Notes: generated from the sequence alone by a model not told the origin. A stretch of 64,000 nt of DNA from Chitinophaga pinensis (GCA_945907065.1 CAMDSC010000006.1:9111-73110); one strand, 5' to 3'. Counted from the first letter of the stretch, positions 1-49,135 are shown. Translations and numbers: made by a program.

Positions 1-83
1 TGAATAAATGATAAACAATAGGGTAGATTGGTTCAGCCAATGGAAAATCCTTTTGTTTACCGGTAAAGGTAAAAAGGTGTCAC

Positions 84-785
84 TCATTCGTTTGCAAGTG
101 AATCATGTAAAATTGGAACCAGTTCGGATAAATGATGGATTATAAAAGAAGGCAAGTGTATTTGTAACTCCTCTTCACTAAAAGCACCTGTTGTAATACC
201 AATACTGTATTTACATCCTGCATTAAAACCTTCGTTCACATCTACTTCCGTGTCTCCCACTTTTATTACCTTATTAGGATCAATGACTCCAAGATCGTTC
301 ATAATCTTATTAATCATATAAGGATGCGGACGGCCCATGATAACCTCGTCACTGCAAACATATGTATCAATTTTGCCATTTTTTAACCACCCAATTCTGT
401 CAATAATTATATCGGTAATTTCTTTTGAAAATCCAGTGTCTAGACCAATTTTTATGCTTTTAGAATGAAGATATTCAAATAATTCTTCAGCGTATGGCAG
501 TGCTTTAAGTTCCGTGGTGTTTTTATAATATTCAACCATGATGTTTTGAAATCGGCGGTGAATCCTGTTTACATGATTTTCATCAATTAATTCTATATCT
601 TTTTCAAATTCCTCCAATATTTTAAGAATTGCCTCCGGTTTTTTATAACCCATCAGTGGGTTGATCTTTTCAACCGGAACAGTATATCCAAAGTCATGGA
701 ATGCTTTTTGAAAGGATTCAGCGATTTCTCCATTATCCATTACAGTAGTTCCTGCAATGTCAAATACTATTAGTTCTATATTCAT
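84..785 (-). CDS. Phosphonatase-like HAD-superfamily hydrolase (PhnX-like)
   Basis: The N-terminus carries the HAD motif I (FDIAGTTV). The region SFQKAF...PLMGYKK aligns by eye to phosphonoacetaldehyde hydrolase (VILDWAGTTVD...AFRQAF...PMGLGKW), including a Lys at the position of the Schiff-base Lys. C-terminal HAD motifs are present (VGDTEVDVNEGFNAG). Confidence 0.6.
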   Translation of the reverse strand: MNIELIVFDIAGTTVMDNGEIAESFQKAFHDFGYTVPVEKINPLMGYKKPEAILKILEEFEKDIELIDENHVNRIHRRFQNIMVEYYKNTTELKALPYAEELFEYLHSKSIKIGLDTGFSKEITDIIIDRIGWLKNGKIDTYVCSDEVIMGRPHPYMINKIMNDLGVIDPNKVIKVGDTEVDVNEGFNAGCKYSIGITTGAFSEEELQIHLPSFIIHHLSELVPILHDSLANE

Positions 786-791
786 GATTAT

Positions 792-1376
792 TTAGCTTGA
801 TTGATTTTTTGTAAGATGGCTTATCATTAGGTCTTTAAAAATTTTAAGATCACCTATCGCTTTATTGGTTTGTTTTGCCTTTTCATCCCAAATACGGAGT
901 GTAATGTATTGTTCAAACAACTTGTCATTCTCAAATTCAGAGGCTTCTTCCACTGACATTTTACCCCCTTGAAAGACGAGCGTTTTTAAACTTGCTTTCG
1001 ACAATTCTTTTAAATAGGAGGGAAACTTGTATGCGAGATATCTTTTTGCCTCTACATGACTAGCAACCAGTTTCGAAATAGTTTCTGAAAAACCTATACT
1101 TGCCAAATAATTGGCTCCAATACGTTCATGATCGAATACACCAAACCCGTCCATGCTTATTATGCTTTCGTCAGGAAAGGCAAATTCATATAAATGGCCA
1201 ATGTCATGAAAAAAAGCTGCCAAAATTAGCTCCTCATCCGCGTTAGCTTCCATGGCAAGCTCAGCACATTGATACATATGTTCGATTTGGGAAACTGGCT
1301 CACCTATATAATCAGAATCGCCGTACTTTATATATAAGGAGATAATCTCTTCAACTTTGTTTTCTATTGTCATCAT
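792..1376 (-). CDS. HD-domain protein, PhnZ-like (HD metal-dependent oxygenase/phosphohydrolase family found in phosphonate loci)
   Basis: About 190 aa, with an HD motif (FFHDIGHL) and an N-terminal DYIGEPVSQIEHMYQCAELA segment typical of the small HD clade associated with phosphonate catabolism. Its stop overlaps the downstream gene and it sits 6 nt from the HAD gene. Confidence 0.5.
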   Translation of the reverse strand: MMTIENKVEEIISLYIKYGDSDYIGEPVSQIEHMYQCAELAMEANADEELILAAFFHDIGHLYEFAFPDESIISMDGFGVFDHERIGANYLASIGFSETISKLVASHVEAKRYLAYKFPSYLKELSKASLKTLVFQGGKMSVEEASEFENDKLFEQYITLRIWDEKAKQTNKAIGDLKIFKDLMISHLTKNQSS

Positions 1377-3424
1377 TAAAAATTTAATTTTATAGTCAAA
1401 TAAAAATTTCGCCCCATACCATTAATTCCACTTCCATGGGTTCTGTAATCTTTATTAAAAATGTTTTGAATCCCTGGAAAAATGCTCGCTTTTTGGTACC
1501 TGAAACTTCCCGATAAATTAAAAATTTGCCAACCAGGCGTACCTCCAACCGGTATTCTATTATCTTCCTTATCTCCTTGTGCAAGCCTATTCTGATGAAA
1601 AGCAAAAACATATTCTGAATGCAATTGGATTTTTTTATATTGATAACTGACTAAAAATCTTCCATTTAATGGTGGTATTCTTCTTAATGGTTCATTTTTA
1701 GTTAGGTTTTGTCCAAAGCAATAGGAAATATTTCCTGAAAATTTAAAGGATTTATAAAAATAATTGGTAAAAGAAAAGTCTAAACCTTTAAGATAGGATT
1801 CCTGACTGTTTTCTTTTTTGTAAACATTGTAACCCTCAATCTTTTCTCCAACCATTTGTGTCCGGGTGATAAGATCGGAAAGATGCATATAGTAAAAAGA
1901 GATACTAACCAACTCCTTTCTAGTTTGAAGGCGATATCCAACCTCGGTATTAAACGATTTTTCAGGTTTAATTTTATAAGAGGGCACTTCATACCGGAAA
2001 TCTACCAATCCAAGAGTTCCCATATCGTCAATATTGGGTAAACGATATCCTGAACTAAAGGAGGAAAACAGACTTTGCGTTGATGATATTTGAAAGAGAG
2101 CTGCCAAATTAGCAACCATGGATGAAGGATTGATTTGTATTTCCGATGGATTCGAACCTATTTTACCTGTATCGGAAATCAAAAGATTAAATTTATTATA
2201 CCTCAAGCCGGCTTCAATTCTAAATGGGTTCAGTTGAAAATGATGCAGAGTGTACACTGAAAAATTTCCATTCATTGCTAAATCAGGATACAAACCTCTT
2301 TGCAGTAAATGAGTATTTGTCGCTATGCTTATTTGATCTCTAGAACTTCTTACCAAATCATGGTAGAACTCAATTCCTGAATTAGCTAACCAGTTCTTTT
2401 TTAGCTGGGATAAGATATCAATGGTTACTCCATAAGTTAAAATTTGATCCTTTTCAATAAATCGATAATTATTGTTATTTTTAAAATAGCTTCTTGTCTC
2501 ATTATTTTTTTGTGCAGAAACTGTAAAAGTGGTTTTAGTTAATAATTTTCTTTTGCCGGTGTTTTCTAGTCTCGCATAGCTAAGTTGTCGCTTTTGCGGT
2601 TCAAAAAAATAATAATTAAAATTTTCAAGATGAACTTTATGATACAAGGGAACATCTCTTTGTTCAAGATATTGATAAGCTAAAGTTATTATTGAACGAG
2701 AATTTAAAAGGAATTTAAATTTTCCGTTTATGGCATGTTCTTTATAACCCGATGGAGATTGCTTCCCAGTGGTGTCGCCACCATAAAGATCTCCAAACTC
2801 TCGAATAGTGGCACCTATCAAAAAAGCTGTTTTCTTTGTTTGATAAAGCATCTCGGCGTGGCTAGTCCATTCCATTTTTTGCGTAACAGCCTTTAATTGA
2901 ACCTCCGTGTGTAATTTTTTCTTAGCTGAGAAGACAGGTTCTTTAGTAAAGACCTGTATAACCCCTCCAAGTGCATCGGAACCAAATTGAACTGACCCGG
3001 TACCTTTTACGGCTTCAATATGAGATATGGAGTAAACATCAATAGTATTAAAATATTGGTTAGGTCCGTAGCGAAAAATAGAATTATTCATTCTAACCCC
3101 ATCGGTTAAAATGAGTATTTGATTACCTGTTAATCCTCTAATAAAAGGAGAACCTCCGCCATGATTGGTTTTTTGGATAAAGATCCCGCTGCTTCCGGAA
3201 AGTGCATCTGGAGCAGTCCGATATTGGAAATTTTCGATATCTCTTTTATTAAGCGTTACATAGGAATAAGGAATAAATAAAGATTGGGTCTTATTTCTGC
3301 TGGCAGTAACTAAAACTTCCATTAGTTTTATTGTAAAATCAGATGTATCTGCTTGTGAGAAAGCATCTCCATGCAAACCACTGAAAAAAATAACAAGTAA
3401 AAAGATTCGCCATGATTGTAGCAT
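1376..3424 (-). CDS. TonB-dependent outer-membrane receptor
   Basis: Signal peptide, a plug-like N-terminal region, a ~680-aa beta-barrel composition and a C-terminal aromatic residue (…IKLNF). Confidence 0.8.
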   Translation of the reverse strand: MLQSWRIFLLVIFFSGLHGDAFSQADTSDFTIKLMEVLVTASRNKTQSLFIPYSYVTLNKRDIENFQYRTAPDALSGSSGIFIQKTNHGGGSPFIRGLTGNQILILTDGVRMNNSIFRYGPNQYFNTIDVYSISHIEAVKGTGSVQFGSDALGGVIQVFTKEPVFSAKKKLHTEVQLKAVTQKMEWTSHAEMLYQTKKTAFLIGATIREFGDLYGGDTTGKQSPSGYKEHAINGKFKFLLNSRSIITLAYQYLEQRDVPLYHKVHLENFNYYFFEPQKRQLSYARLENTGKRKLLTKTTFTVSAQKNNETRSYFKNNNNYRFIEKDQILTYGVTIDILSQLKKNWLANSGIEFYHDLVRSSRDQISIATNTHLLQRGLYPDLAMNGNFSVYTLHHFQLNPFRIEAGLRYNKFNLLISDTGKIGSNPSEIQINPSSMVANLAALFQISSTQSLFSSFSSGYRLPNIDDMGTLGLVDFRYEVPSYKIKPEKSFNTEVGYRLQTRKELVSISFYYMHLSDLITRTQMVGEKIEGYNVYKKENSQESYLKGLDFSFTNYFYKSFKFSGNISYCFGQNLTKNEPLRRIPPLNGRFLVSYQYKKIQLHSEYVFAFHQNRLAQGDKEDNRIPVGGTPGWQIFNLSGSFRYQKASIFPGIQNIFNKDYRTHGSGINGMGRNFYLTIKLNF

Positions 3425-3430
3425 ATTGAT

Positions 3431-6139
3431 TTAATCTCCCTTGTAATGATTTTGTCTCATAATATCTTCCTGATCCATAGGAGGTCCTTGCATAATTTTA
3501 TGCCAATCTAATTCACGGTTGTATTTTTTCATGGCTTTTTGGGCATCAAAAACCCGAGTGTCATTTGGCTCAAGAGTGAAAGGAATAAAATCAGGTGTTT
3601 CTGTAAAAAAGTCTTGTAAAAGTGTAGCAGTAGCATCGTATTGATTGACATAAGGAATATTTAAAATATTATAAATAGTTTTGAGAATAGAGCCAAAACT
3701 GGCATGTGTATGGCTTACATGTCCTTTTTTTACATATGGACCTGCCATGATTAATATGCTTCTATGCGCATCTATATGATCTACACCTCCTTGAGGATCA
3801 TCTTCCGTAATAATAACTAATGTGTTTTTCCAGTATTTTGTTCTCGATAAAAAATGAAGAATGCGTCCAACAGCCAAATCATTATCGGCAACAAAGGAAT
3901 CTGGAAAATAATATCCATCTTCTGGTCTGGGTCCTGCGGTATGGTCATTTGGCACTTGCATGACAATTAAAGCCGGCATGGTATCTTTTCCTGTCAGCCA
4001 TTTCTCAGTAAATTCATTTTCAAATTGGTTCATTCTGAATTGATCCGGAATGTTGGTATTATAACCCGCGTAATTATGACTGGTTTTATTGAAAAGAGCC
4101 TTTTGCATTGGTACCATAACTCCGTGAGCAGCTCCAGTTGCTGTATCCATGGCCTCTTCCCTCACATGAGCAGTTTCATTGGCTTCACCAAAATTGTAAA
4201 ATGAAATGTTATTTCTTTCTAACGCTTCCCATAATCCGCCAATTTCCGCGTAATCCTCAGGATCCATACTTCCGGTAGAGCCTGGAAACCTTCGGCCGGG
4301 AGCAGATGAAAATAATTTTGCTGTTTTGTCAATACTGGAGTTGGTTTCTACCCATTCATTCGGAATAACTCCAAGCATCCAGTGATGTCCATGGATGGAA
4401 GCATCGCTTTCACAGTAAAAATTGTCGCTGTATGCAAAACTTTTGGCGGCTTTGTGGTGATTGGGTGTCACTTTTAATCCTTGATATTTTATTTTTAAGG
4501 AATCAGGTAGCACGTATTCACAATTGACTCCAAAACGGGCCAAACTGCTATCTCCCTTTCCGTCTTTTAATTGACCAAAAACCTCATCGTAAGTTCTGTT
4601 TTCTTTGGTAATATAAACGATGTGTTTTATAGGGCTGTTTCTCATTCGGGGTAGGAGAGGCAATGGGTTTTTACCATCATCTAAAAGAGTAATGCTTTTA
4701 AAGGTATTGCTCAATGTTTGTGAGGTGTATTTTTTTAATTGCTCATTGGTTGGCATTTTAACTTTTTGGAAACTTCCTAATTGTATATCTCCAATATAAG
4801 TGCCTTGTGGTGGTTTAATAAAGTTTTTTCCTCCATTGGGGCCTGCTCCCAAACCTCTGCATGAAATAATATAAAGTTCATTCTCTGATTTGGATAAAAT
4901 GACCCTGGAGGTACCCCAACCGCTGGGTATTAATCCTTTGGATGTTTTACTTTTAATATCGATAACTGCTAAGGCATTGAATCCTAAAAGGGCCACATAC
5001 AAAGTTTTTTCATCTTGACTTAAAGAAATGCCAAAAGGCAGCAATCCTCTTAATTTATCAATTCGTTGATCTACTCGTATCGGAATATGGGATACAATTC
5101 GATGATTTTTATAATCGATCACAGTTATATTGTCGTTAGTGGCATTGGTAACATAAGCATATTTTTTTCCAACTGCAATGGAATTGGGACTGGAACCGCC
5201 AACTACTTCGGCATTTTCAATCATTTCTCCAATCTGATAACCTGTTTTAAATTTGTCAACTACTTTGTTGGTAACAAGATTAATAGTGTAAACACTCATG
5301 GCTTCAGGTACATTTGGGCTTCCCACTCCAGGGATTTTTCTGCCTTCAATGATGGTTCCATGGATGGACTCCCGAGTATTGTTTCCGTAAGGATGACGAG
5401 AGATTAAGAGTGAATCATAATTTTTTTGATTGGCTCCTTCAATTAGGGGATACGAGTACATGCCCACGTTTGCAACAAAAGCAGTAGTTTTATCAGGACT
5501 CAAAGCTAAACCAAAAGGAAGTCTACCCACAGGAATAGAAGCGGTAATTTTTTTTAGTTTGAGATCATATCTAACCAATCTAAAATTTGCTCGGTCAAGA
5601 ATTAATAATTCATTTTTTGAATCATTCAGCAGTAAATCTGCGGTAAAGCTATCTTCATATTTTATTCCTTCAAACTCACCATTTAAAGAAAAGGTGTCTA
5701 TTTTTTCAAATTTCTCTATGTCGTAAATGATAACTGAACCTTGATCTCCTCCGCTTAAATAAACTGTTTTTGAATCAGGGTGAATGGCGATTCCAAGAAA
5801 AGAACCATGTTGAAGAGGCGATTTTATCTTTCCGTCATAGGATGGAACTCTTACCTGTTTTAGACTTGCAATATCAATAACTGTAAATACCCCATTATGA
5901 AGAGTCACTGCCTTTTTTTCATCAGAAGAAACAGCCATCCCAAAAGGATCATGCGTTATTCGAATAAAATTTCCTGCCGGAGTTAAGAATCTGCCACTAG
6001 CAAGAATTGAAATACCTTTTTCATTTATCCTACAAAAACTGTCTACACCAGGTACCTGCAAAATGGTTACTTTATTTTGGGCAATAGAATTGGAATAGAC
6101 ACTAAATATTAGAAGAGAAATGAGGAATATTTTTTTCAT
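3431..6139 (-). CDS. Secreted fusion protein: N-terminal YVTN/YncE-type beta-propeller and C-terminal phosphoesterase (phospholipase C / acid phosphatase AcpA family)
   Basis: Signal peptide MKKIFLISLLIFSVYSNSIAQ. The N-terminal half has repeated propeller-like blades (GxxxSPDxKxxYV patterns). The C-terminal half contains IKHIVYITKENRTYDEVFG, matching the ENRSFDhyfG signature of the PF04185 phosphoesterases. Confidence 0.6.
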   Translation of the reverse strand: MKKIFLISLLIFSVYSNSIAQNKVTILQVPGVDSFCRINEKGISILASGRFLTPAGNFIRITHDPFGMAVSSDEKKAVTLHNGVFTVIDIASLKQVRVPSYDGKIKSPLQHGSFLGIAIHPDSKTVYLSGGDQGSVIIYDIEKFEKIDTFSLNGEFEGIKYEDSFTADLLLNDSKNELLILDRANFRLVRYDLKLKKITASIPVGRLPFGLALSPDKTTAFVANVGMYSYPLIEGANQKNYDSLLISRHPYGNNTRESIHGTIIEGRKIPGVGSPNVPEAMSVYTINLVTNKVVDKFKTGYQIGEMIENAEVVGGSSPNSIAVGKKYAYVTNATNDNITVIDYKNHRIVSHIPIRVDQRIDKLRGLLPFGISLSQDEKTLYVALLGFNALAVIDIKSKTSKGLIPSGWGTSRVILSKSENELYIISCRGLGAGPNGGKNFIKPPQGTYIGDIQLGSFQKVKMPTNEQLKKYTSQTLSNTFKSITLLDDGKNPLPLLPRMRNSPIKHIVYITKENRTYDEVFGQLKDGKGDSSLARFGVNCEYVLPDSLKIKYQGLKVTPNHHKAAKSFAYSDNFYCESDASIHGHHWMLGVIPNEWVETNSSIDKTAKLFSSAPGRRFPGSTGSMDPEDYAEIGGLWEALERNNISFYNFGEANETAHVREEAMDTATGAAHGVMVPMQKALFNKTSHNYAGYNTNIPDQFRMNQFENEFTEKWLTGKDTMPALIVMQVPNDHTAGPRPEDGYYFPDSFVADNDLAVGRILHFLSRTKYWKNTLVIITEDDPQGGVDHIDAHRSILIMAGPYVKKGHVSHTHASFGSILKTIYNILNIPYVNQYDATATLLQDFFTETPDFIPFTLEPNDTRVFDAQKAMKKYNRELDWHKIMQGPPMDQEDIMRQNHYKGD

Positions 6140-6158
6140 TAATAAGGGTTTCTAATAC

Positions 6159-6189
6159 AAACAGGTAACCTAATTGAGGTTACCTGTTT
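6159..6189 (-). promoter_or_regulatory. Intergenic perfect 12-bp stem-loop between susD-like and the phosphoesterase gene (putative intra-operon attenuator or mRNA-stabilising hairpin)
   Basis: aaacaggtaacc-taattga-ggttacctgttt is a perfect inverted repeat with a 7-nt loop. It sits in the 72-nt gap after the SusD stop, and no strong U-tract follows on the transcribed (minus) strand. Confidence 0.4.
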
Positions 6190-6211
6190 TAAATGAATAT
6201 GACAAGTTTGT

Positions 6212-7768
6212 TTATTTAATAATCCACATTTTTTCATTGATATCATCACTACCAGAAAACTGCGATATAATTGCTGAATTAACATTGACAGCATTAACTG
6301 ATTTTTCGGAAACAGGGTATTGAAATCTCAAAGGAACTCTTTGACTATTTCCTGTACCAGGTCCAACATGGAAAGTTGGTGTTGTAGTTCTTCTCCAGTT
6401 ATAATAAGCTTCAGATCCGCTATTTTGATAAAATGCTAAATATTTTTGAGTTAAAATTTGGGTTAGACCGGCCGCTGAATTTCCGGCGTATTGAATGACT
6501 GGTTGTGCGTAATAGGTATTCCAATCGTAAGAAATGGTAAAGGTATTATAGTCATTAATGGAGCCATTTTTCTTTTGAAAGGTGACAGTATTGTTGCCAT
6601 TTACCAATCCGTAAAAACCGATACTCGACTGAATTCCTTTTTTATACCAATCCTCGGCATCCCCTGTAGTCCATCCGCGATTTATAGCCTCAGCAATATT
6701 AAAACACATTTCAGGATACCCGATTTGAATGATACTTTCTGCTGTGTAAGTTCTGTAATACCTGTTTCTGTTTATATAAGAGTATAATCCTGCCAATGCT
6801 TTGGTAGTCATAGTAGCCAAATCTTCACCACTGCCAGCCCCGTTAAAAGCTTGGAAACTTGTTGGTGAAGCTCCTGCTCTAACCAACGAATCGGCAGGTT
6901 CAGCGACTACGAAGGTTCTTGGGTCTTTATAGCTAACGAGTGTGTTTAAATAAGTACTTGACATATTGTAACGATTTACGTCAAGACCATAGATATCCGG
7001 ATTTGTAGGATATTTATCAAATGAATTTGGTACATAGGCCATATTATCTGTCATGTCTGAAAAAATAGGGTACTTGGAAGAATTGGACAATGTTTCAGTG
7101 AATTTTTGCTTAATGTTTAAATCGGCATCCCCTTCTTGTTTGCTTAGTTGAATAAGCACTCGCAATTTGAAGGTATTAACAGCCTTGCGCCATTTATTTA
7201 AATTATTAGCATAGTAAAAATCACTTGATAATAAATAGCTGCCGTTACTTGTAATGGTGCTTATTTCATTGTTTGATTCTTCAAGCCATACAAGTATTTG
7301 TTTGAAAACTTCCTTTTGACTATCGTACTTTGGCTTGGTGTTATCAATTCCCTTTAAAGCCTCAGATAATGGAATATCTCCAACTTGCATGGTTACATTA
7401 TAATACAAATAGGCACGGAAAAATTTTCCTAAGGCAGTGTATGCATTTGGAGCAGGAATATTTTTTGTGGCTTCCTCTTCCATTTTAAGCACATTGTTCA
7501 ACCATTTAAATGCATCATACGAAACACCTGTCCAACTATATTCCTGATCACCATAATAATTATAATTGCAGCAATAGAACTGATTCCAGCGTTGGGTTGG
7601 ATTAAATGATTTTTGAGTAAAGTCAACCAAAATTCCATTCAAAACTAAATTAGCCGGAACGCTTGTAGCACGGTTCTGATCCATTTCTAATGAATCAAAC
7701 TCTTTTTTACATCCACTCATTGCAAAGATGAAAGTAGAGGTTAATAGAATTATAAATACGTTTTTCAT
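6212..7768 (-). CDS. susD-like: SusD/RagB-family outer-membrane lipoprotein
   Basis: Lipoprotein signal (…FAMSGCKK), ~520 aa, a Trp/Tyr/Asn-rich alpha-helical composition, and a position immediately downstream (19 nt) of a SusC-type receptor. Confidence 0.7.
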   Translation of the reverse strand: MKNVFIILLTSTFIFAMSGCKKEFDSLEMDQNRATSVPANLVLNGILVDFTQKSFNPTQRWNQFYCCNYNYYGDQEYSWTGVSYDAFKWLNNVLKMEEEATKNIPAPNAYTALGKFFRAYLYYNVTMQVGDIPLSEALKGIDNTKPKYDSQKEVFKQILVWLEESNNEISTITSNGSYLLSSDFYYANNLNKWRKAVNTFKLRVLIQLSKQEGDADLNIKQKFTETLSNSSKYPIFSDMTDNMAYVPNSFDKYPTNPDIYGLDVNRYNMSSTYLNTLVSYKDPRTFVVAEPADSLVRAGASPTSFQAFNGAGSGEDLATMTTKALAGLYSYINRNRYYRTYTAESIIQIGYPEMCFNIAEAINRGWTTGDAEDWYKKGIQSSIGFYGLVNGNNTVTFQKKNGSINDYNTFTISYDWNTYYAQPVIQYAGNSAAGLTQILTQKYLAFYQNSGSEAYYNWRRTTTPTFHVGPGTGNSQRVPLRFQYPVSEKSVNAVNVNSAIISQFSGSDDINEKMWIIK

Positions 7769-7787
7769 TTTGTGTTTATTATATTAA

Positions 7788-10700
7788 TTAAAAGGTAAGA
7801 TTTAAATTTATTCCATAGCTCCTCAAAGTAGGAGTTTGAAGGTTTGTACTGCTTTGGTTAGCGAACTGATCCACATCCACATCTTTGAATTTTTTTCCAT
7901 CCTTCAAGAAATAAAGAACATTTCTGGCAACAATAGAAACCGTTGCACCTTGGATAAAACCTTTTTTGGCAATTGAACTTGGTATTTGATAAGTAAGTAC
8001 CACTTCTCTTAATTTTGTATAAGTCTTACTCATCATGTTTGGTTCAGGAATACTGTGAACACGGCTAATATAATCTTGTACATAAGTTTTGGTAGCATTG
8101 TCTGCAAATTGAAGTTCACCATAATTGATAATTTTACCTGTAACTGGATCAAATTTAATGGAAGCACTATTAGATACTTGAACCCCTTCACCTATGTATG
8201 ACTTAATTCCAAGTGCATCCTGATCACGGGAAATGCCGAAATCACCTTCTGTAGTTTCAATGTGTCTTCCTCCTTGGAAGGTTTTTTTCCTTACATAATC
8301 TTCCATTATACCTCCAACACGGCCATCAAATTGAAATCCAAGTGTAAAGCTTTTGTAACCAACCTTATTGTAAACGCTCCATACCCAATCTGGATTTGAA
8401 TGACCAGCCAATTGTGCTACTGGAAGAATAATTGGTCTTCCACCGCCATCATTGATAATTTTACCATCTTCAGTTCTTGCAAATTTTTTAATCCATACTT
8501 CATCTGTTCTGCTGCCAACCTTATAAAAATTGTTTATAGCAGTTAATCCTTCTGGCAATTCCTTGTATGTTTCTTTAAATTTAGACCAGTTAACCATCAC
8601 ATCCCAACTCAATCCTTTACCAACTTTTGATTTTTCAATAATTTTACCAGTAAGGGTTACTTCAAGACCCTTTTTTTCAGTTTTGGTTGCGTTAATAATA
8701 TTATTTGTAAATCCTGAGGCTTGTGAAATTTGTTGTGTAAAAATTTGTGGACCATCGATATATTTAAAGTATGCAAGATCTAGACCTATTCTATTGTTTA
8801 AAAACTTCATATCAATTCCTAATTCTGAATTGGTTCTGTTGTCAGGCTTAATATTTTCGTCTATCAGGTTATTAGAAAAACGAGAAGCAGTAGAATTGTT
8901 ATATCCAATAGAATTGCTGTAAACATCGTTAAATTGATATGAAGGGCCACCATAGGTTGAAGTGTATTGTGAACCATATCCAACAGGGTAAGTATTATTA
9001 GGGGTGACTCCAATTGTATTTGCTACGAATGCCCCTCCACCTCTGCTTTGGGCATAAGAAGCTCTTAACTTCAAAAAGTTTATTACTGAAGGAAGTTTAA
9101 CATAATCTGTAATCACAGTGTTAGCATTTACTGATGGATAAAAGAAGGTGTTGTTATCCTTTTTTAAGGCAGATAATTTATCAACTCTACCAGAGGTATT
9201 CAAGTTTGCATACTTGCCTAATTCAAAATCATAAGAATAGAAAGCACTATTTACTCTCATATCAGAATTGAAGTTATATGCTTTTACAGGATTTCTACTA
9301 TTGGAAAAGCTGTAAACATTTGGAACGTTCAAATAGTCAGTTTTAACAAAGCTTGAAGCATATGAAAACAACCTTATATTTCCACCAATCAAACCGCTTA
9401 CTTTTATAAAATTTGCAATTTTAGGGGCATTCATTCTCAATATTCCATCAGTGTTATTTTCGAATAAGGAGCGTTTGTCCTCAATATAGTCGCCTTGATT
9501 TTCCTCACGTCCATAAGGATGGGCTGAGAATGGCATTTTTTCAGTTCTTGTTAAATCATAAGTTGAAATAGAAGTTCTTCCCATAAAATCAAAATAGTTG
9601 TTGAATTTGTAAGTAAGAGAAGTGTATCCATAGATATCATTTTTATGATGGCCTCTTAACCATTCGTAGCTCATAAAGTATGGATTGTGATACCGCTGAT
9701 ATTCTTCATACTTGCTTTGAACTCCTTCTTTGCCAGGTTGCCAATAATCTTCCATATCGCGGATGTCCCAATCGGCACCTCCCCATATGGTAATGTTGTA
9801 AATTACACTGTTTGGACCATAATTTACATCTGGAATATTATCCGTAAATTGTTTGTTGAAATTAAGATTTGCATCCAACTTAAGTTTTTTAGTCATCTTC
9901 AAGGATGATGATAAATTAAAGTTAATCGTTTTTAAATCCGTATTTGGAATAATGCCCCTTTGATAGTTATTCGAAACCGAGAAACGCAAATCATGCTTTT
10001 CTCCGCTTGAAGATATTGCAATGCTATTATTGGTTAAAATACCGGTTTGGATAAATCGCTCTAAGTTATCTTTACCTCTTGCAGTCCAAGGTGTTGGTGT
10101 TCTTTTTCCAGTAATAGGATCAACAGGACTATCGTATTGTGGTAAAAGGCGTCCATCAAATTTTGGACCCCAAATATCATAATCTCCATCATTAACTCCT
10201 GCTCCTTTTCCGTCTACGAATTCGTATTTTCCATGATCCCCAGGTCCATATAAATCTTGAGTTCTTGGCAAAGCAATAAATCCTTTTTGAAACATTGTGC
10301 TACTGTTATATTCAACTGCAAAACCACGTTTATTTTTGCTTCCTTTTTTTGTATTTATTATAATAGCACCGTTTTGACCGCGGTATCCATACAAAGCTGA
10401 AGCAACAGGGCCTTTTAAAATGGTATAGCTTTCAATATCATCACCATTTATGTTCCAAGTATCAGAATTAATTGGCACACCATCCACTACATATAAATAT
10501 ATGGGATTACCTCTCATAAGTACCTGAGGATTGCCCAATAACTCGGCTGAAGCGCCAACAGTTAATCCGGCAACTTTACCTGTTAATGTGGTAAAGGGGT
10601 TTGGATCTCTGGCTTTAACTAAATCTTCTCCTTGCACTTCCTGTGTGGCATAACTGATATATTTCTTATCTTTTTTAACCCCTAAGGCTGTTATCACCAA

Positions 10701-11033
10701 ATCCTTTAACTCAATTGAATTTGGTTCCATTAAAATTGTTAAAGAAGAACTTTCCACAATTATGGTTTTAGTTTCATAACCAATATTGCTTATAACCAAT
10801 TCAGCACCTTTTGAAGCTGATATTGTAAATTCACCTTTAATGTCAGAAATTGCACCTGTACGGGTGTTTTTTAATACAATAGTAACTCCTTCAATCGGCA
10901 ATTTTGATGTAGCATCATTAATTTTACCATTAATTTGAAGATCTTGGGAAAATAATAAAATTGGTGTTGTAATTAAAAAATTCAAAAATAACAGACCAAT
11001 CCATTTGCGTTTAGTAATACTTTTTAGCATCAT
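7788..11033 (-). CDS. susC-like: SusC/RagA-family TonB-dependent receptor
   Basis: 1081 aa, with an N-terminal carboxypeptidase-regulatory-like domain (INGKINDATSKLPIEGVTIVLKNT), a plug, a large barrel and a terminal …LNLTF. Confidence 0.85.
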   Translation of the reverse strand: MMLKSITKRKWIGLLFLNFLITTPILLFSQDLQINGKINDATSKLPIEGVTIVLKNTRTGAISDIKGEFTISASKGAELVISNIGYETKTIIVESSSLTILMEPNSIELKDLVITALGVKKDKKYISYATQEVQGEDLVKARDPNPFTTLTGKVAGLTVGASAELLGNPQVLMRGNPIYLYVVDGVPINSDTWNINGDDIESYTILKGPVASALYGYRGQNGAIIINTKKGSKNKRGFAVEYNSSTMFQKGFIALPRTQDLYGPGDHGKYEFVDGKGAGVNDGDYDIWGPKFDGRLLPQYDSPVDPITGKRTPTPWTARGKDNLERFIQTGILTNNSIAISSSGEKHDLRFSVSNNYQRGIIPNTDLKTINFNLSSSLKMTKKLKLDANLNFNKQFTDNIPDVNYGPNSVIYNITIWGGADWDIRDMEDYWQPGKEGVQSKYEEYQRYHNPYFMSYEWLRGHHKNDIYGYTSLTYKFNNYFDFMGRTSISTYDLTRTEKMPFSAHPYGREENQGDYIEDKRSLFENNTDGILRMNAPKIANFIKVSGLIGGNIRLFSYASSFVKTDYLNVPNVYSFSNSRNPVKAYNFNSDMRVNSAFYSYDFELGKYANLNTSGRVDKLSALKKDNNTFFYPSVNANTVITDYVKLPSVINFLKLRASYAQSRGGGAFVANTIGVTPNNTYPVGYGSQYTSTYGGPSYQFNDVYSNSIGYNNSTASRFSNNLIDENIKPDNRTNSELGIDMKFLNNRIGLDLAYFKYIDGPQIFTQQISQASGFTNNIINATKTEKKGLEVTLTGKIIEKSKVGKGLSWDVMVNWSKFKETYKELPEGLTAINNFYKVGSRTDEVWIKKFARTEDGKIINDGGGRPIILPVAQLAGHSNPDWVWSVYNKVGYKSFTLGFQFDGRVGGIMEDYVRKKTFQGGRHIETTEGDFGISRDQDALGIKSYIGEGVQVSNSASIKFDPVTGKIINYGELQFADNATKTYVQDYISRVHSIPEPNMMSKTYTKLREVVLTYQIPSSIAKKGFIQGATVSIVARNVLYFLKDGKKFKDVDVDQFANQSSTNLQTPTLRSYGINLNLTF

Positions 11034-11053
11034 TTTTTTTTAATTTGATGCTT

Positions 11054-11061
11054 CAAAAATA
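11054..11061 (-). promoter_or_regulatory. Candidate Bacteroidota -7 promoter element (TAnnTTTG) upstream of the susC-like gene
   Basis: The minus strand reads TATTTTTG about 21 to 28 nt upstream of the SusC ATGATG start, inside a 244-nt AT-rich leader region. Confidence 0.2.
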
Positions 11062-11277
11062 ATTTTGAGTGTATTAAGCGTTCCGTTATTTTAAGTTATT
11101 TTTTAGTGAAAATAACCTTTCTTTAATGTTAATTTGTTTTTTTAAAGATATAATTTCTTAATGATTTAAACATACATAAGTTTTTCAAAACGTTATTTAT
11201 CATTAATTAAGTTATTTGAAAATACTAAGGTTCTCAATTTATGTAAATAAAATTTGATGAATTGGTTTTTATAACTA

Positions 11278-12474
11278 TTAACTTGTTAATGTTTTATAAA
11301 AATTCAATAGCCTTTGAATTACGGCCTCGTTTGAATACTTTGATATTATTAATTCATAACCATTTTTGCTCACTTGCTGATAGTGACTTTGGTTTAGAGC
11401 AATTTGTTTAAATATTCTAGCAAATTCTTCAGGTATATCTGCAATTAGTATGTTTTTTCCATCTATATAGTCAATTCCTTGAGCACCAATTGTAGTGGAA
11501 ATTACCAATTTGGAGGCCGCCATAGCTTCCAATATTTTTAAGCGGATGCCGCTTCCCGAAAGCAAAGGAACTACCGTAATTGATTTGTCTTTTACAAAAT
11601 CAGCTCCATCTTTTACTTCCCCAACCATTACCACGTTTTCAAATACCATTTGCTTCATAGTATCCGGCATATTTTTGCCAGCTATAAAAAGTTTGAATCG
11701 TTTATCCATCTTTAATATTAAAGGCCAAACTTCTTTAAGAAACCATAAAACAGCCTCACGATTTGGCATCCATTCCAATGAACCCAAGTGGAAAATATGA
11801 AACAGATTTTCATTGTTTGAAGGTTTCCAATATTTAGTATCAATACCTGCGGGTGAAATAAAAATGGGTTTTATACATCCCAATTTTTCAAATAATTTAC
11901 CATCATCAGGAGTTACAGGAACTATTGCATCAAATTTATTTATAATCTCTTTTTCAAAATTATAAAGCCGTTTTGAAAGTAAATTGAGGTACCATTTTTT
12001 CAAAAAATTAGTTTCATTAATTGCTAATCGTTTCCATATTTGATACTCAACATTGTGTTGTCTTAATATTATTGGTGCCTTGCTATATAGCTTCAATACA
12101 TCAAAATACATAGCTACAAATGTGCCTTCCACCTGAATGATATCATAGGTTTCCGAATTTAATAGATTTACCAAAAACTGTTCAAAATTTCTATTATAAA
12201 ACCGAATGGCATTGTAGGATTGCTTGGAAAATAAATTAATAAAAGCTGGTATTGGTTTTACATTGGTATCAATATCAAAAATATAAACCGTAGCGTATTT
12301 TTTTAATTCAATGGAAGCTTCTTCAATATCAATATTATGTTTAATTCCGTTTAAACAAGCAAGAGTAACCTCATGGCCTGCTTCTGCAAATCCACGGGTG
12401 TAGTTATAAATTCCTATAGTGCCACCTTCATTTAAAGGATATGGAACCCTATGCGAAACTTGTAAAATCTTCAT
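11278..12474 (-). CDS. Glycosyltransferase, GT4/GT1 family
   Basis: About 400 aa with a GT-B fold. It has the C-terminal EX7E-like region (…PLLSGSGIRLKILEAMAASKLVISTTIGAQG…) and an N-terminal hydrophobic sugar-acceptor domain. Its start overlaps the upstream stop (TAATG). Confidence 0.7.
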   Translation of the reverse strand: MKILQVSHRVPYPLNEGGTIGIYNYTRGFAEAGHEVTLACLNGIKHNIDIEEASIELKKYATVYIFDIDTNVKPIPAFINLFSKQSYNAIRFYNRNFEQFLVNLLNSETYDIIQVEGTFVAMYFDVLKLYSKAPIILRQHNVEYQIWKRLAINETNFLKKWYLNLLSKRLYNFEKEIINKFDAIVPVTPDDGKLFEKLGCIKPIFISPAGIDTKYWKPSNNENLFHIFHLGSLEWMPNREAVLWFLKEVWPLILKMDKRFKLFIAGKNMPDTMKQMVFENVVMVGEVKDGADFVKDKSITVVPLLSGSGIRLKILEAMAASKLVISTTIGAQGIDYIDGKNILIADIPEEFARIFKQIALNQSHYQQVSKNGYELIISKYSNEAVIQRLLNFYKTLTS

Positions 12475-14060: not shown

Positions 14061-14698
14061 AGTTGTTTGTTCTTTAATAATTGAAAATCACCATTTTCAA
14101 TTTTAAATTCTTTGGTACAAATAAAATCATATTCCAATGGATTATTGGAAGCTATAATCACCATTCGGTCTTTAGTATATTCAGTTACAAGTTTTTGATA
14201 AAGTTTGATATTATCTTCATCCATATTGGAACAAGGCTCATCCAAAAAAAGAACTTCGGCAGCGGTAAATATTGCCAACGTATTTTTAAACCTTTGTTTT
14301 ATGCCTGATGACAATTGCTTTATTTGTTTTTTTCTATGGTTGTCCAAATTTCCCAAACTTATTATTTCATCCGTCTTAATATTATTCCAAGTTTGTTTTT
14401 GATTAAAATGAAACTCTATATGTTCTTCAATTGTTAGATGTTCAAATAAATCAATATAGGGTGATGAAAATGTGAAATCAGGGGATTCGTATTCTTTGTC
14501 ATCCTTTACCCAGCTAAGTTTTCCTTTGTCAAAATAAAGAAAACCTGCCATAATTTTAAGTAAAGTGCTTTTGCCAGAACCATTGGCTCCTAAGATTGCA
14601 ATTTTTTCGTAAGGGTATACCGTTAGGTTAAGAGATTTTAGTACCCATTGATTACCAAATTTTTTGTAAAGGTTTTCTATGTTTAATGAAATGGCCAA
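14051..14698 (-). CDS. ABC transporter ATP-binding protein (short, LptB/CcmA-like)
   Basis: Walker A GANGSGKST, signature LSSGIKQR, Walker B VLFLDEP and D-loop SNMD. It is 215 aa and its stop overlaps the permease start (ATGGGCATAA). Confidence 0.75.
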   Translation of the reverse strand: MAISLNIENLYKKFGNQWVLKSLNLTVYPYEKIAILGANGSGKSTLLKIMAGFLYFDKGKLSWVKDDKEYESPDFTFSSPYIDLFEHLTIEEHIEFHFNQKQTWNNIKTDEIISLGNLDNHRKKQIKQLSSGIKQRFKNTLAIFTAAEVLFLDEPCSNMDEDNIKLYQKLVTEYTKDRMVIIASNNPLEYDFICTKEFKIENGDFQLLKNKQLWA

Positions 14699-14701
14699 AA
14701 T

Positions 14702-15484: not shown

Positions 15485-15491
15485 GTTTTTA

Positions 15492-16919: not shown

Positions 16920-16929
16920 TATTTATGAA

Positions 16930-17946: not shown

Positions 17947-18065
17947 GTAAGGTAATGCTGCAAACTTACTTATTTTTTTAGATTTGATTGGATAAATTTA
18001 GATTATACCAGTATTCTATTTTTTTTAATAAAATTTATAAACAAGGTGGCTAAAAATGCTTAATC

Positions 18066-19184: not shown

Positions 19185-19579
19185 ATTTATTAATTTATAT
19201 TTTTTAAGTTAAAGTAATTATGCCCTGATAATTCCTTGTGGGTTTTTAAAAAAAAATAAGGACATTTCATGATGGGCAAAAATACATAACTCAAAGTAAT
19301 GATTTTAATAAATAATAGTTAGAATTTAAAAATAATTTTACGGTAAAATTTGAATAAAGACAATTTAATACTTTAAGTGTTAGATAACAATTATTACAAC
19401 TTTGATAAGTCGTATTTAAGTAAAAAAATTATTATCAAATTAAATAGTTGCATTTTTCTAATTTATCAGTTTATATTTGTTGTATTAACTCTTTTAATAG
19501 AAAGCACTAAAACCTTTTGTTTATTTGAATAATAGGGCAATAATTGAGGGGTAAACTAACTATTAGAAATGTAAAAGTA

Positions 19580-20460: not shown

Positions 20461-20482
20461 ATATTTTATAGTTAGTAGAATT

Positions 20483-49128: not shown

Positions 49129-49135
49129 TATTTAA

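Follow-up and report, generated by a model that had tools for sequence, protein, structure and literature searches.

What does a SusC/SusD pair take up when its locus encodes no glycan-active enzyme? SusCD systems are the archetypal importers of glycans, and the locus raising this question lies within a 64,000-nucleotide stretch of DNA (hereafter the window) from a Chitinophagales bacterium. The operon is real and directs import across the outer membrane, and it apparently serves the harvest not of sugars but of compounds of the 2-aminoethylphosphonate (AEP) type, which carry a C-P bond and occur naturally in lipids and glycans.

Organization of the operon

As described in the initial annotation, six co-directional open reading frames are present on the minus strand, encoding, in the order of transcription, a PusC-like TonB-dependent transporter of the SusC/RagA type (7788-11033, 1081 aa), a PusD-like surface lipoprotein of the SusD type (6212-7768, 518 aa), the beta-propeller/phosphoesterase fusion BP_PE1 (3431-6139, 902 aa), a classical (non-SusC) TonB-dependent transporter, TBDT (1376-3424, 682 aa), a PhnZ-like HD-domain di-iron oxygenase (792-1376, 194 aa) and a PhnX-like, phosphonatase-like HAD hydrolase (84-785, 233 aa). 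The intergenic gaps of 19, 72, 6 and 6 nt were reproduced, while the TBDT and HD genes, given as 0 nt apart, share one nucleotide (TAATG). The operon had been taken to stop at base 84, but it continues and is truncated by the edge of the window. An ATG at 87-85 overlaps the stop codon of the HAD gene (ATGA, 87-84) and opens a seventh reading frame on the same strand, DUF5690, the first 29 codons of which (1..87) precede its running off base 1. A contig 100% identical to the window across their overlap adds three co-directional genes past the edge, coding for DUF5690 (434 aa in full), a PbfD-type FAD oxidase (376 aa) and a second fusion enzyme, BP_PE2 (808 aa), and therefore the transcription unit contains nine genes. 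Its genes overlap (ATGA, TAATG) or are at most 72 nt apart, and an intergenic search found no terminator-like site between them. Upstream are located the LPS genes for GT4, LptF/G, an LptB-like ABC ATPase, LpxA and LpxC-FabZ; downstream, past the window, the DUF58/MoxR genes are convergent.

The claim that glycoside hydrolases, sulfatases and lyases are missing holds both inside and adjoining the block, and no CAZymes were found in the flanks of the operon. The assignment of all enzymes to P-O or P-C chemistry is borne out by the family matches, and the three additional genes strengthen the phosphonate reading.

Predicted phosphonate enzymes and inner-membrane permease

Profile searches placed the HD and HAD proteins in phosphonate-specific families and not in generic nucleotidase or dehalogenase families. 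The best match of the HD protein was TIGR03276 (Phn-HD), whose cutoff of 214.6 bits it narrowly missed with 195.7 bits, and its identity to crystallized PhnZ (4MLM) was 45% (E 2.9e-47). All six Fe ligands of PhnZ (H34, H58, D59, H80, H104 and D161) align to identical residues, as do the substrate residues Y24, E27 and H62, and the predicted reaction is the conversion of (R)-1-hydroxy-2-aminoethylphosphonate to glycine and phosphate. A PhnZ with conserved active site is shared with the oxidative PhnY*/PhnZ pathway of AEP degradation (McSorley 2012; van Staalduinen 2014). A PhnY*-type 2-oxoglutarate dioxygenase was not found in the locus or among the annotated recurrent neighbor families, and therefore this PhnZ must either receive (R)-1-hydroxy-AEP ready-made or rely on a hydroxylase encoded elsewhere.

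The HAD protein scored 186.8 bits with TIGR03351 (PhnX-like; cutoff 218.9), followed by TIGR01422 (true PhnX) at 131.5 bits, and its best PDB matches were the B. cereus PhnX structures (E 3.7e-22). It keeps the nucleophile motif DxAGT, the equivalent of the Schiff-base Lys53 and the Arg of GRP(Y/H)P. Cys22 and His56 of true PhnX are not conserved, so that the exact substrate could differ; the predicted reaction yields aldehyde and phosphate from phosphonoacetaldehyde or a closely similar compound. The FAD oxidase matched TIGR03364 at 412 bits (cutoff 285) and is about 40% identical to PbfD2.

DUF5690 constitutes its own Pfam family (PF18943, 488 bits), for which a search found no functional literature, and similarity to a local MFS_1 set or to PDB proteins was not detectable by sequence or profile. 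An AF2 model built on a 93%-identical homologue (P0121; pLDDT 87) gave as best Foldseek matches G6PT1/SLC37A4 (E 5e-8, TM about 0.6-0.65), which are its nearest solved structures and belong, like GlpT, to the organophosphate antiporter family. On this model, DUF5690 is predicted to be an inner-membrane transporter of MFS fold, nearest to the organophosphate:phosphate antiporters. Like the AepP/GlpT-type MFS permeases of the antiporter family (Murphy et al. 2021, PMC8316502), it combines a 12-helix MFS fold with a position beside AEP catabolic genes, and this context suggests that it may transport AEP.

Outer-membrane proteins and fusion enzymes

SusC matched TIGR04056 at 409 bits (cutoff 368.25) as well as PF13715 and PF07715; it has a signal peptide, an N-terminal CarboxypepD_reg domain and a plug. 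SusD matched PF12771 (SusD-like_2) at 194.5 bits and PF12741 at 126 bits, and its translation carries the lipobox AMSG-C20. In related loci the SusD partners are without exception of PF12771 type, even at 26-32% identity. This type resembles glycan-binding relatives, propeller domains often bind carbohydrates, and AEP is a known glycan decoration. Together with the archetypal role of SusCD, these points would suit a phosphonoglycan PUL: oligosaccharides decorated with AEP, derived from capsules, exopolysaccharides or the glycans of invertebrates and protists, would enter through SusCD, with the propeller binding the glycan and the esterase stripping off AEP. We consider this unlikely: the operon, the flanks and the annotated recurrent neighbor families yielded no glycoside hydrolase or lyase and no permease or kinase for sugars, so the sugar part of an AEP-glycan would be wasted, and the recurrent accessory genes (GDPD, ceramidase-like, lipase-like) are related to lipids.

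The TBDT carries a signal peptide, a TonB box near LMEVLVTAS, a plug (PF07715, 75 bits) and a barrel (PF00593, 93 bits); its best NCBIfam match, the TonB-hemin subfamily, reached 189 bits, far under the cutoff of 316.85. Of 80 related loci, 29 have an ortholog at this position and 10 have a TBDT of a second type in its stead.

BP_PE1 is composed of an SPI-type signal peptide, a YVTN/YncE-type beta-propeller (residues about 25-480; matches to TIGR03866, YncE and 1L0Q) and a phosphoesterase domain of the PLC/AcpA family within the alkaline phosphatase superfamily (residues about 495-880). The profile search confirmed PF04185 for this C-terminal half (40.8 bits, cutoff 23); its structure model was poor. 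Neither a lipobox nor a T9SS C-terminal domain was found, and the type of signal peptide points to a periplasmic location. Identity is 71-77% across orders, with DASIHGHHW at 579-587 invariant. BP_PE2 matched PF04185 at 35 bits and is 31% identical to BP_PE1.

In common with Francisella AcpA (2D1G), BP_PE1 keeps the metal-site motifs ENxxxD (ENRTYD, 513-518) and DDxxGxxDH (EDDPQGGVDH, 779-788). In contrast to AcpA, which has no propeller as aligned, it is fused to a probably 7-bladed one, and it is very divergent from AcpA (E about 1e-4 even with a profile). Assignment of the nucleophile is uncertain. The PLC/AcpA family is known for phosphate esters and not for phosphonate esters; a phosphonate-ester substrate, by which the fusion enzymes would differ from AcpA and PlcH, is our proposal. 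PlcH of Pseudomonas aeruginosa, a PF04185 phospholipase C/sphingomyelinase, works alongside a neutral ceramidase, and this pairing is echoed in Bacteroidales, where the fusion enzyme is clustered with a ceramidase-like gene, lipase-like hydrolases and an MFS permease.

Conservation of the gene arrangement

Synteny was compared among GTDB species representatives carrying the 80 closest relatives of one protein, a biased sample, 51 of which had full flanks. The same gene order was found in dozens of species despite protein divergence of 30-60%, and the arrangement is not due to chance. HD and HAD are very broad superfamilies and the nearest named relatives of the TBDT are haem receptors, from which one might argue for mere adjacency, with the TBDT and the HD protein engaged in iron/haem uptake or nucleotide metabolism. 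Given this conserved order, the overlapping start and stop codons with tiny gaps, the retention of every PhnZ-specific residue and the low score of the haem-receptor match, such an explanation is hardly credible.

SusCD is located beside the fusion enzyme, on its upstream side, in 32 of the 51 species with full flanks. Of these 32 loci, 27 keep three or more of the four phosphonate genes, all of which are absent from 18 of the 19 loci without SusCD. In three loci (L015, L020 and L074), PhnZ, PhnX and PbfD are replaced by PhnW-PhnY-PhnA, the other AEP pathway, and another DAO enzyme, with DUF5690 kept; the scores against cutoffs were 496 vs 408 for PhnA, 670 vs 636 for PhnY and 485 vs 401 for PhnW. 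What stays the same is thus the substrate, AEP, indicating cargo of the AEP type.

A theme of lipid head groups surrounds the fusion enzyme in related loci, some of which add GDPD and NPP-type phosphodiesterases. These genes, the classical action of PF04185 enzymes on phosphate esters, the loci in which the fusion enzyme occurs without phosphonate genes, and the phosphoinositol head groups handled by the characterized PusCD1/2 are all consistent with a Pus locus for organophosphate esters in general (phospholipid head groups, nucleic acids), the phosphonate genes being an add-on module that does not define the cargo. The near-constant company of SusCD and the phosphonate module, the exchange of one AEP pathway for another in an otherwise preserved locus, which argues for AEP as the selected cargo, and the co-variation of a dedicated inner-membrane permease with the phosphonate genes make this quite improbable. 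Moreover, the operon has no phosphomonoesterase of a recognized alkaline phosphatase type (PhoA, PhoX, PhoD or PafA) that could complete the breakdown of phosphate esters, even though PF04185 itself includes the acid phosphatase AcpA.

Relation to known systems

The locus had been thought to represent an undescribed PUL class, a view contradicted by the literature on Pus systems. SusCD 'Pus' loci induced by Pi starvation were defined in Flavobacterium, where PusCD clusters co-localize with TBDTs and phosphonate-degrading enzymes including phnX, a dao oxidoreductase and metal-dependent hydrolases (pusCD4/5/6) (Lidbury et al. 2020, PMC8115612; 2019 preprint 10.1101/719427), and aminophosphonate genes often co-localize with pusCD-like pairs (Connolly et al. 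2026, bioRxiv 10.64898/2026.09.03.749221). The operon is an informative member of this known Bacteroidota class, not a new class; a search of the literature yielded no functionally characterized aminophosphonate-linked Pus locus. Common to the operon and the Flavobacterium loci are a SusC/SusD pair with phosphoesterases in place of CAZymes, additional TBDTs, inner-membrane organophosphate permeases and esterases predicted to be periplasmic. They differ in that PusD1 and PusD2, serving the import of lipid-derived organophosphate head groups (phosphoinositol), are of PF07980/PF14322 type and bind inositol phosphates by a Trp stack, whereas the SusD of the operon is of PF12771/PF12741 type. In addition, the Pus loci encode PI-PLC, calcineurin-like phosphodiesterases or PhoA instead of beta-propeller/PF04185 fusions. 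Pi-dependent induction is the defining feature of Pus, and the operon is likened to Pus by its gene content.

The HD/HAD/FAD trio is also known already (Zangelmi et al. 2023, PMC10590968). PbfD2 oxidizes AEP and N-methyl-AEP to phosphonoacetaldehyde and is clustered in its source organism with phnX and a phnZ homologue. This PbfD2-PhnX cluster of Mariniblastus fucicola is PhnW-free like the operon, includes the phnZ homologue and leads via the FAD oxidase to phosphonoacetaldehyde and then to the HAD phosphonatase; it is described as catabolic with putative phosphonate transporter genes, and the text searched mentions no SusCD, TBDT or secreted esterases for it. The HAD protein of the operon differs from the M. 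fucicola PhnX in belonging to the 'PhnX-like' clade, its activity on phosphonoacetaldehyde being assumed. As in canonical Sus-like PULs, a SusC/SusD pair comes first among co-directional genes that also encode secreted hydrolases and a permease of the inner membrane, but the operon is devoid of CAZymes, sugar catabolism and a hybrid two-component or ECF/anti-sigma regulator, and its enzymes target P-O and C-P bonds.

Proposed route of phosphonate acquisition

Taken together, we estimate a probability of roughly 70% that this nine-gene operon of Pus type, SusCD-based and non-glycan, acquires and mineralizes AEP-type phosphonates by the following steps. The SusD lipoprotein and the SusC barrel would bind and take in a conjugate that carries a phosphonate and is too bulky to pass through porins, most likely a de-acylated or lyso phosphonolipid head group and possibly an AEP-decorated oligosaccharide, while the classical TBDT may provide a second, high-affinity route for small free phosphonates. 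In the periplasm, BP_PE1 and BP_PE2 would cleave the P-O ester joining the phosphonate to its carrier, releasing AEP, N-methyl-AEP or 1-hydroxy-AEP for transfer across the inner membrane by the DUF5690 permease. In the cytoplasm, the PbfD2-type FAD oxidase would deaminate AEP and N-methyl-AEP to phosphonoacetaldehyde, the C-P bond of which would be cleaved by the PhnX-like hydrolase, yielding acetaldehyde and phosphate. Alongside this branch, the PhnZ-like oxygenase would cleave (R)-1-hydroxy-AEP that is already hydroxylated in nature, producing glycine and phosphate. Against this scheme stand the HD and HAD scores, which fall short of the curated cutoffs, the loss of Cys22 and His56 from the HAD protein, the missing PhnY*-type hydroxylase, the phosphate-ester chemistry known for the PLC/AcpA family together with the poor model of that domain, the bias of the synteny sample, the lack of profile similarity between DUF5690 and the MFS_1 set, and the haem receptors nearest to the TBDT, though far under cutoff; intact lipids are not an obvious cargo for SusC.

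Putative promoter region and regulation

AEP can also be used as a nitrogen source, and the same machinery might serve the acquisition of nitrogen and carbon from aminophosphonates under induction by substrate instead of phosphate starvation. PbfD liberates ammonia or methylamine, and in 14 related loci the gene immediately preceding susC encodes an XRE-HTH/cupin regulator; its best match, far under cutoff, is PuuR, an amine-responsive repressor. Much of bacterial AEP catabolism is Pi-insensitive and substrate-induced (Murphy et al. 2021), and a Pho box, sought in the region upstream of susC (11034..11277, minus strand), was not recognizable, nor was one of the E. coli type present. On the other hand, the locus of the window has no PuuR-like gene, in 4-5 species the locus borders on Pit/PhoU and PhoBR-like genes, and the Flavobacterium PusCD clusters with phnX and dao are induced by low Pi. 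A nitrogen and carbon role is thus a possibility to be entertained, if the less probable one; it and phosphorus scavenging are not mutually exclusive.

The region upstream of susC contains a candidate Bacteroidota-type -7 box, TATTTTTG, at 11061-11054, preceded by ATAAC (11099-11095), ATAAC (11089-11085) and TTAATAC (11077-11071), read from the sequence as putative regulatory elements. In about 20 other species the susC promoter has T[TA]AC elements in an 11-bp phase, at -58, -47, -36 and -14 as counted from the -7 box; a PWM derived from these promoters gave no score for the window's own upstream region. In the nearest relative (L007), the elements of the window are kept with different spacers.

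Extent of the operon

The six minus-strand ORFs of the SusC/SusD locus were found exactly where the initial annotation had placed them: the SusC-type receptor (7788-11033, 1081 aa), the SusD-type lipoprotein (6212-7768, 518 aa), BP_PE1, a fusion of a beta-propeller and a PF04185 phosphoesterase domain (3431-6139, 902 aa), a classical TonB-dependent transporter or TBDT (1376-3424, 682 aa), a PhnZ-like HD protein (792-1376, 194 aa) and a PhnX-like HAD protein (84-785, 233 aa). The gaps of 19, 72, 6 and 6 nt were also reproduced, except for the junction between the TBDT and HD genes, given earlier as a gap of 0 nt, where stop and start overlap by one base in TAATG. Terminator-like sites on the coding strand of the operon were all intragenic and occurred at chance frequency; the scans for sigma-70 promoters and terminators, which are uninformative for Bacteroidota, gave results at chance level.

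The operon continues beyond the HAD gene. The stop codon of this gene overlaps an ATG (ATGA at 87-84), from which a new frame stays open as far as base 1. The HAD protein was detected on at least 23 metagenomic contigs by exact-match look-up, and the metagenomic contig L001, identical to the window (100%) across an overlap of 886 bases, extends the operon past this edge. Since L001 adds three co-directional genes, coding for a DUF5690 protein (434 aa; PF18943, 488 bits), an FAD oxidoreductase (376 aa) and BP_PE2, a second beta-propeller/PF04185 fusion (808 aa from its true ATG), the unit consists of nine genes, after which convergent DUF58 and MoxR genes follow. The feature is real and its annotation was good. 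The functional reading of the locus was largely right, but its extent had been cut at the window edge, and the three genes beyond that edge matter for the interpretation.

On the other side, a leader of 244 nt separates susC from a compact LPS/lipid A cluster on the same strand (11278-16919, minus), which includes a GT4 glycosyltransferase, an LptF/G-type permease, an LptB-like ABC ATPase, LpxA and a fused LpxC-FabZ. This glycosyltransferase of LPS biosynthesis is the only one near the operon. In agreement with the earlier description of the locus as free of glycan-active enzymes, no glycoside hydrolase, polysaccharide lyase or sulfatase was found in the nine-gene operon or its flanks; the locus is thus not a canonical glycan PUL, in which SusCD is accompanied by CAZymes. 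The remainder of the window also carries housekeeping genes, including those for alternative complex III, TopA, RecN, FTCD and cargo of the type IX secretion system (T9SS). A 1013-aa molybdopterin/4Fe-4S protein followed by a 451-aa NrfD-type membrane subunit (46087-50491, plus) resembles the ActB/ActC pair of alternative complex III. Two T9SS cargo proteins with Por_Secre_tail C-terminal domains (21449-24235 and 40125-42257) were identified, one carrying Laminin_G_3, the other being an M43 peptidase that also has a PKD domain. No match was obtained when the window was scanned for Rfam families and tRNAs, and Pfam gave none for the ORFs of 443 aa (51699-53030) and 970 aa (58273-61185).

Predicted enzymes of C-P bond cleavage

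The HD and HAD proteins had been assigned to phosphonate families, and their best matches are indeed of this kind, although both score below the curated cutoffs. The HD protein is closest to TIGR03276, a family of phosphonate HD oxygenases (195.7 bits, cutoff 214.6), with a lead of about 65 bits over TmpB, and its ortholog at the syntenic position in L022, a related locus, passes the same cutoff with 226.3 bits. The protein is 45% identical to the crystallised PhnZ (4MLM; E 2.9e-47) and agrees with it at nine of nine PhnZ positions: the six iron ligands H34, H58, D59, H80, H104 and D161, and Y24, E27 and H62, which hold the amino group of (R)-1-hydroxy-2-aminoethylphosphonate. PhnY*, the 2-oxoglutarate dioxygenase that supplies this hydroxylated form of 2-aminoethylphosphonate (AEP), is absent from the nine-gene operon. 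It was also absent from the annotated recurrent families of neighbouring genes in related loci, many small clusters of neighbours being judged by length and N-terminus only.

The best match of the HAD protein is the PhnX-like family TIGR03351 (186.8 bits, cutoff 218.9), and its score against TIGR01422 is 131.5 (cutoff 220). Alignment with PhnX of B. cereus pairs FDIAGTT with FDWAGTT, MGYKK with MGLLK and GRPHPYM with GRPYPWM. The protein keeps the DxAGT nucleophile motif with Ala for the second Asp, the Schiff-base Lys53 of the cap domain and the phosphonate-binding Arg. Cys22 and His56, found in true PhnX, are not conserved. The syntenic HAD proteins of other species are also of the TIGR03351 type, one of them above the cutoff (224.7).

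The FAD enzyme, encoded on L001 outside the window, scores above the cutoff of TIGR03364 (411.9 versus 285.1 bits). Over its full length it shares about 40% identity with PbfD2 of Mariniblastus fucicola, 30% with PbfD1 and none with PbfC, these values being approximate as the PbfD and PbfC reference sequences were read by OCR from Fig. S2 of Zangelmi et al. The PbfD enzymes were shown to form phosphonoacetaldehyde by oxidising AEP and N-methyl-AEP, PbfD2 and PhnX together form a PhnW-free AEP pathway, and the M. fucicola cluster also holds a phnZ homologue (Zangelmi et al. 2023, PMC10590968).

Conservation and pathway exchange among related loci

Relatives of BP_PE1 were detected in at least 584 species by a pattern scan in which each GTDB species was represented by a single genome. 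The 80 closest loci were collected with 10-kb flanks, the nine operon proteins were mapped onto each, and all neighbouring ORFs were clustered and the recurrent families annotated. Synteny of the block across Bacteroidota, proposed at the outset as a check, was confirmed: SusC-SusD lies directly upstream of BP_PE1 in 32 of the 51 adequately flanked loci, and 27 of these 32 carry at least three of PhnZ, the PhnX-like protein, DUF5690 and PbfD, the gene order being usually that of the nine-gene operon. The TBDT is present in at least 15 and BP_PE2 in at least 14 of these 27 loci. Where SusCD is missing, none of the phosphonate genes was found in 18 of 19 loci. Identity to the window proteins ranges from 32 to 66% for the cytoplasmic enzymes and from 26 to 85% for the SusCD pairs, and the organisation of the locus is conserved across this considerable sequence divergence. 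Cultivable carriers of the syntenic locus include Ferruginibacter, Parasediminibacterium paludis and Mucilaginibacter angelicae.

In three species, at the loci L015 (about 8600-16300), L020 (about 12700-22700) and L074 (about 10700-19700), the genes for PhnZ, the PhnX-like protein and PbfD are replaced, between the TBDT and DUF5690, by those for PhnA, PhnY and PhnW (all above equivalog cutoffs) and a different DAO-family oxidoreductase. SusCD, BP_PE1 and DUF5690 are retained in all three, and the TBDT is of a second type in L015 and L020 and of the window's type in L074. These loci represent a non-orthologous swap of the AEP pathway within an otherwise conserved locus. Since the exchange is between one AEP pathway and the other known one, it is the substrate that stays constant.

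The accessory genes of the related loci code for lipid-head-group enzymes, including periplasmic NPP-type phosphodiesterases (10 loci) and GDPD (7 loci). The Bacteroidales loci have BP_PE1 but neither SusCD nor phosphonate genes; its neighbours there (6-7 loci) are a ceramidase-like protein, alpha/beta hydrolases of lipase-like type and an MFS permease. This conserved cluster was observed in Bacteroidales MAGs at L038 (4669-17606) and also at L042, L064, L066, L070 and L080, where the gene for the fusion enzyme is sometimes duplicated in tandem. It codes for a ceramidase-like PF04734 protein (35 bits, cutoff 32), for propeller proteins of the DUF3748/PD40 kind, for one or two alpha/beta hydrolases resembling lipases, and for an MFS_1 permease and proteins with PKD domains, and looks like a cluster for sphingolipid or lipid degradation.

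Outer-membrane components

SusC passes the SusC/RagA model (409 versus 368 bits), and SusD is a PF12771/PF12741 lipoprotein with its lipobox at Cys20. The characterised SusCD-based phosphate utilisation system (Pus) of Flavobacterium differs in this respect: PusD1 and PusD2 belong to PF07980/PF14322, with a pocket for Trp-centred binding of inositol phosphate. A binding mode different from that of PusD1/D2 is expected for the aminophosphonate-linked pairs (Connolly et al. 2026, 10.64898/2026.09.03.749221).

The 682-aa TBDT is of the ordinary plug-and-barrel type. Its best named match is a haem-receptor subfamily, at 189 bits against a cutoff of 317. A role in haem or iron uptake was rejected, the score being far under the cutoff and the position of the gene being fixed within phosphonate operons.

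BP_PE1 and BP_PE2 fusion enzymes

BP_PE1 starts with an SPI-type signal peptide, followed by a propeller of the YVTN/YncE type with matches to 1L0Q, hydrazine synthase beta and YncE. The C-terminal domain passes PF04185 (40.8 bits, cutoff 23) and carries the metal motifs of this family, ENxxFD and DDxDGxxDH; in a profile of 41 homologues, AcpA of Francisella (2D1G) aligns at ENRTYD as well as at EDDPQGGVDH, the two metal-site sequences of BP_PE1. Neither motif varies among the 41 homologues, and both also occur in BP_PE2, which is 31% identical to BP_PE1. The membership of BP_PE1 in PF04185 is based on this Pfam and motif evidence. In the AF2 model of the full protein, made from a 41-sequence alignment of low diversity, the propeller is confident and the catalytic domain is mostly of pLDDT below 50, across residues 514-634 and elsewhere. 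Ser581, within the invariant DASIHGHHW (VSADGHNW in BP_PE2), is only a candidate for the nucleophile.

Neither a lipobox nor a T9SS C-terminal domain is present on BP_PE1 or BP_PE2. Because the window holds Por_Secre_tail proteins, indicating that the organism uses T9SS, this absence is informative, and both enzymes are predicted to be located in the periplasm.

BP_PE1 is unusually conserved. In a comparison covering loci L007-L086, identity over about 900 aa remains at 70-77% in four orders, namely Chitinophagales, Bacteroidales (Prolixibacteraceae), Flavobacteriales (Arenibacter) and Sphingobacteriales (Mucilaginibacter). In contrast, identity decreases to 26-32% for the adjoining SusC and SusD, and for the cytoplasmic enzymes it is 32-66%. 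The conservation of BP_PE1 suggests either a very strong constraint or a recent horizontal spread.

Fjoh_3414 of F. johnsoniae is listed as a strongly Pi-induced 'hypothetical lipoprotein - putative phosphatase', and its InterPro signatures are those of a quinoprotein/cd1/YVTN propeller (Lidbury et al. 2020, PMC8115612, Table 1). This protein may be a relative of the BP_PE family and, if so, would provide expression evidence for Pho control of the family.

DUF5690 as a putative permease

DUF5690 is without functional literature. The AF2 model, built on a 93%-identical homologue (P0121), has a pLDDT of 87, a pTM of 0.86 and 12 long helices in an MFS fold. A Foldseek search gave 322 PDB matches at E <= 1e-3, and all of the 50 matches listed were MFS-type transporters, with G6PT1 as the best. 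The nearest solved structures, G6PT1/SLC37A4, sialin and DgoT, are transporters of organophosphates and organic anions. DUF5690 shares the 12-TM fold of the AepP/GlpT/G6PT-like MFS proteins but falls outside them at the sequence level: it has no Pfam MFS_1 or NCBIfam match, phmmer against the PDB gave no match at E <= 10, and hhalign against a local MFS_1 set gave a probability of 0.1. Both sequence-level searches being negative, the link to the MFS is drawn from structure comparison only. DUF5690 is likely an aminophosphonate permease.

Model of aminophosphonate utilisation

The best-supported model for the nine-gene operon is a Pus-type aminophosphonate utilisation system. SusCD and the TBDT would take up phosphonate conjugates and free phosphonates, BP_PE1 and BP_PE2 would release the phosphonate head group in the periplasm, DUF5690 would carry it across the inner membrane, and the C-P bond would be cleaved both by PbfD with the PhnX-like hydrolase and by PhnZ. 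The cytoplasmic steps are predicted from strong homology to characterised enzymes, and the transport and esterase steps are proposed from context. As the cargo, phosphonolipid head groups are favoured over phosphonoglycans, because no glycan-degrading genes accompany the locus, because its accessory genes are lipid-related, and because head groups derived from lipids are what the sole characterised Pus system takes up, its phospholipases being predicted to be periplasmic (Connolly et al. 2026). The presence of PhnZ without PhnY*, together with a PbfD accepting N-methyl-AEP, is consistent with a supply of head groups that are modified in nature. Lipids with hydroxy-AEP and N-methyl-AEP are known from protists, molluscs and predatory bacteria (see also the discussion in Zangelmi et al. 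2023).

BP_PE1 and BP_PE2 may be, in effect, a 'phosphonolipid phospholipase C'; their products would be AEP, N-methyl-AEP and hydroxy-AEP, released from the phosphonolipid head groups or phosphonoglycans that the dedicated SusCD would import. The joint proposal that the two fusions form a new class of periplasmic phosphonate-ester hydrolases and DUF5690 an unrecognised MFS family of aminophosphonate importers is tentative, with roughly one chance in three of being correct. If correct, it would provide the upstream steps still missing between macromolecular phosphonates, a large environmental P pool, and the known pathways of C-P cleavage in Bacteroidota.

In gene content the locus agrees with Pus, having SusCD, two PF04185 fusions and PhnZ-like, PhnX-like and PbfD-like enzymes and no CAZymes; the defining feature of Pus loci is their specific induction at phosphate depletion, as members of the PHO regulon. 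The initial annotation regarded it as an undescribed class of PUL, but SusCD loci induced by Pi starvation had already been defined as Pus, with PusCD clusters containing phnX, a dao oxidoreductase, metal-dependent hydrolases, TBDTs and inner-membrane permeases (Lidbury et al. 2020, PMC8115612; preprint 10.1101/719427). PusCD1/2 have since been characterised, and pusCD-like pairs beside aminophosphonate genes were pointed out and called unexplored (Connolly et al. 2026, 10.64898/2026.09.03.749221); the combination of PbfD, PhnX and PhnZ was also described before (Zangelmi et al. 2023, PMC10590968). Since both the Pus concept and its link to aminophosphonates are published, the operon is not a new category of system. 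Four points were not found in the literature searched: the nine-gene architecture, the tight association of the BP_PE enzyme with SusCD and with genes for AEP use, widespread in Chitinophagales, the exchange of AEP pathways within the locus, and the assignment of an MFS fold to DUF5690 as a likely aminophosphonate permease.

The operon and its roughly 30 syntenic relatives hold every candidate step within a single transcription unit, namely the SusCD pair and second TBDT, two esterases that are both unusual and highly conserved, a DUF-family permease and two parallel routes of C-P cleavage. They form a concrete and testable list of parts, including the putative fusion enzyme and the putative permease DUF5690. 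Phosphonates, AEP foremost, make up a major store of the organic phosphorus present in waters and soils, and most of this store is bound up in lipids and glycans. Cleavage of the C-P bond by cytoplasmic enzymes is well studied, but release of the phosphonate from its carrier and transport across two membranes are much less clear. Bacteroidota often lack ABC importers and, to our knowledge, their release and transport of phosphonates are essentially uncharacterised.

Promoters and candidate regulators

The leader in the window carries a Bacteroidota -7 box, TATTTTTG, located 20 nt 5' of the susC ATG, with ATAAC, ATAAC and TTAATAC in front of it, spaced by about 10-11 bp. All these elements are kept in L007, the closest related locus. 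The susC promoters of about 20 other species show T[TA]AC elements at -58, -47, -36 and -14 as counted from the -7 box, in 11-bp phase. Their shared layout is GTAAC-N5/6-GTTTAC, then CTTAAC, then GTTAAC, with a -7 box of TAnnTTTG (L012, L017, L019, L020, L022, L027, L032, L044, L058, L062, L068, L074 and others), and it is often located 3' of a gene for a PuuR-like regulator with XRE-HTH and cupin domains. For Chitinophagales, this repeat promoter may represent an operator or a box of the Pho type; either a PhoB-type or the PuuR-like regulator could bind the repeats. A 54-column PWM made from the roughly 20 related susC promoters did not recognise the window's own promoter, its best match in the window being intragenic, and the 11-bp-phased T[TA]AC repeats therefore cannot be transferred to the window. 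No Pho box of the E. coli type is present: with 3 mismatches allowed, the E. coli consensus matched at a single unrelated site, fewer than expected by chance.

Genes for a PuuR-like regulator, NPP, GDPD, Pit, PhoU, PhoBR-like proteins and PhnWYA were not found within the window. Among the related loci, the XRE-HTH/cupin regulator, with PuuR as its best match, is encoded directly upstream of susC in 14, and Pit (PHO4) and a PhoU-like protein (PhoU_div) are encoded divergently from susC in 4-5, including L021, L023, L041 and L061. In four loci (L021, L029, L030 and L061), genes for a PhoB/PhoR-like two-component pair lie behind those for the FAD oxidoreductase and DUF5690, the PhoB-like protein scoring 229 bits with the PhoB model, below the cutoff of 296. 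This pair, co-transcribed with the phosphonate genes, may be a dedicated paralogue of PhoBR.
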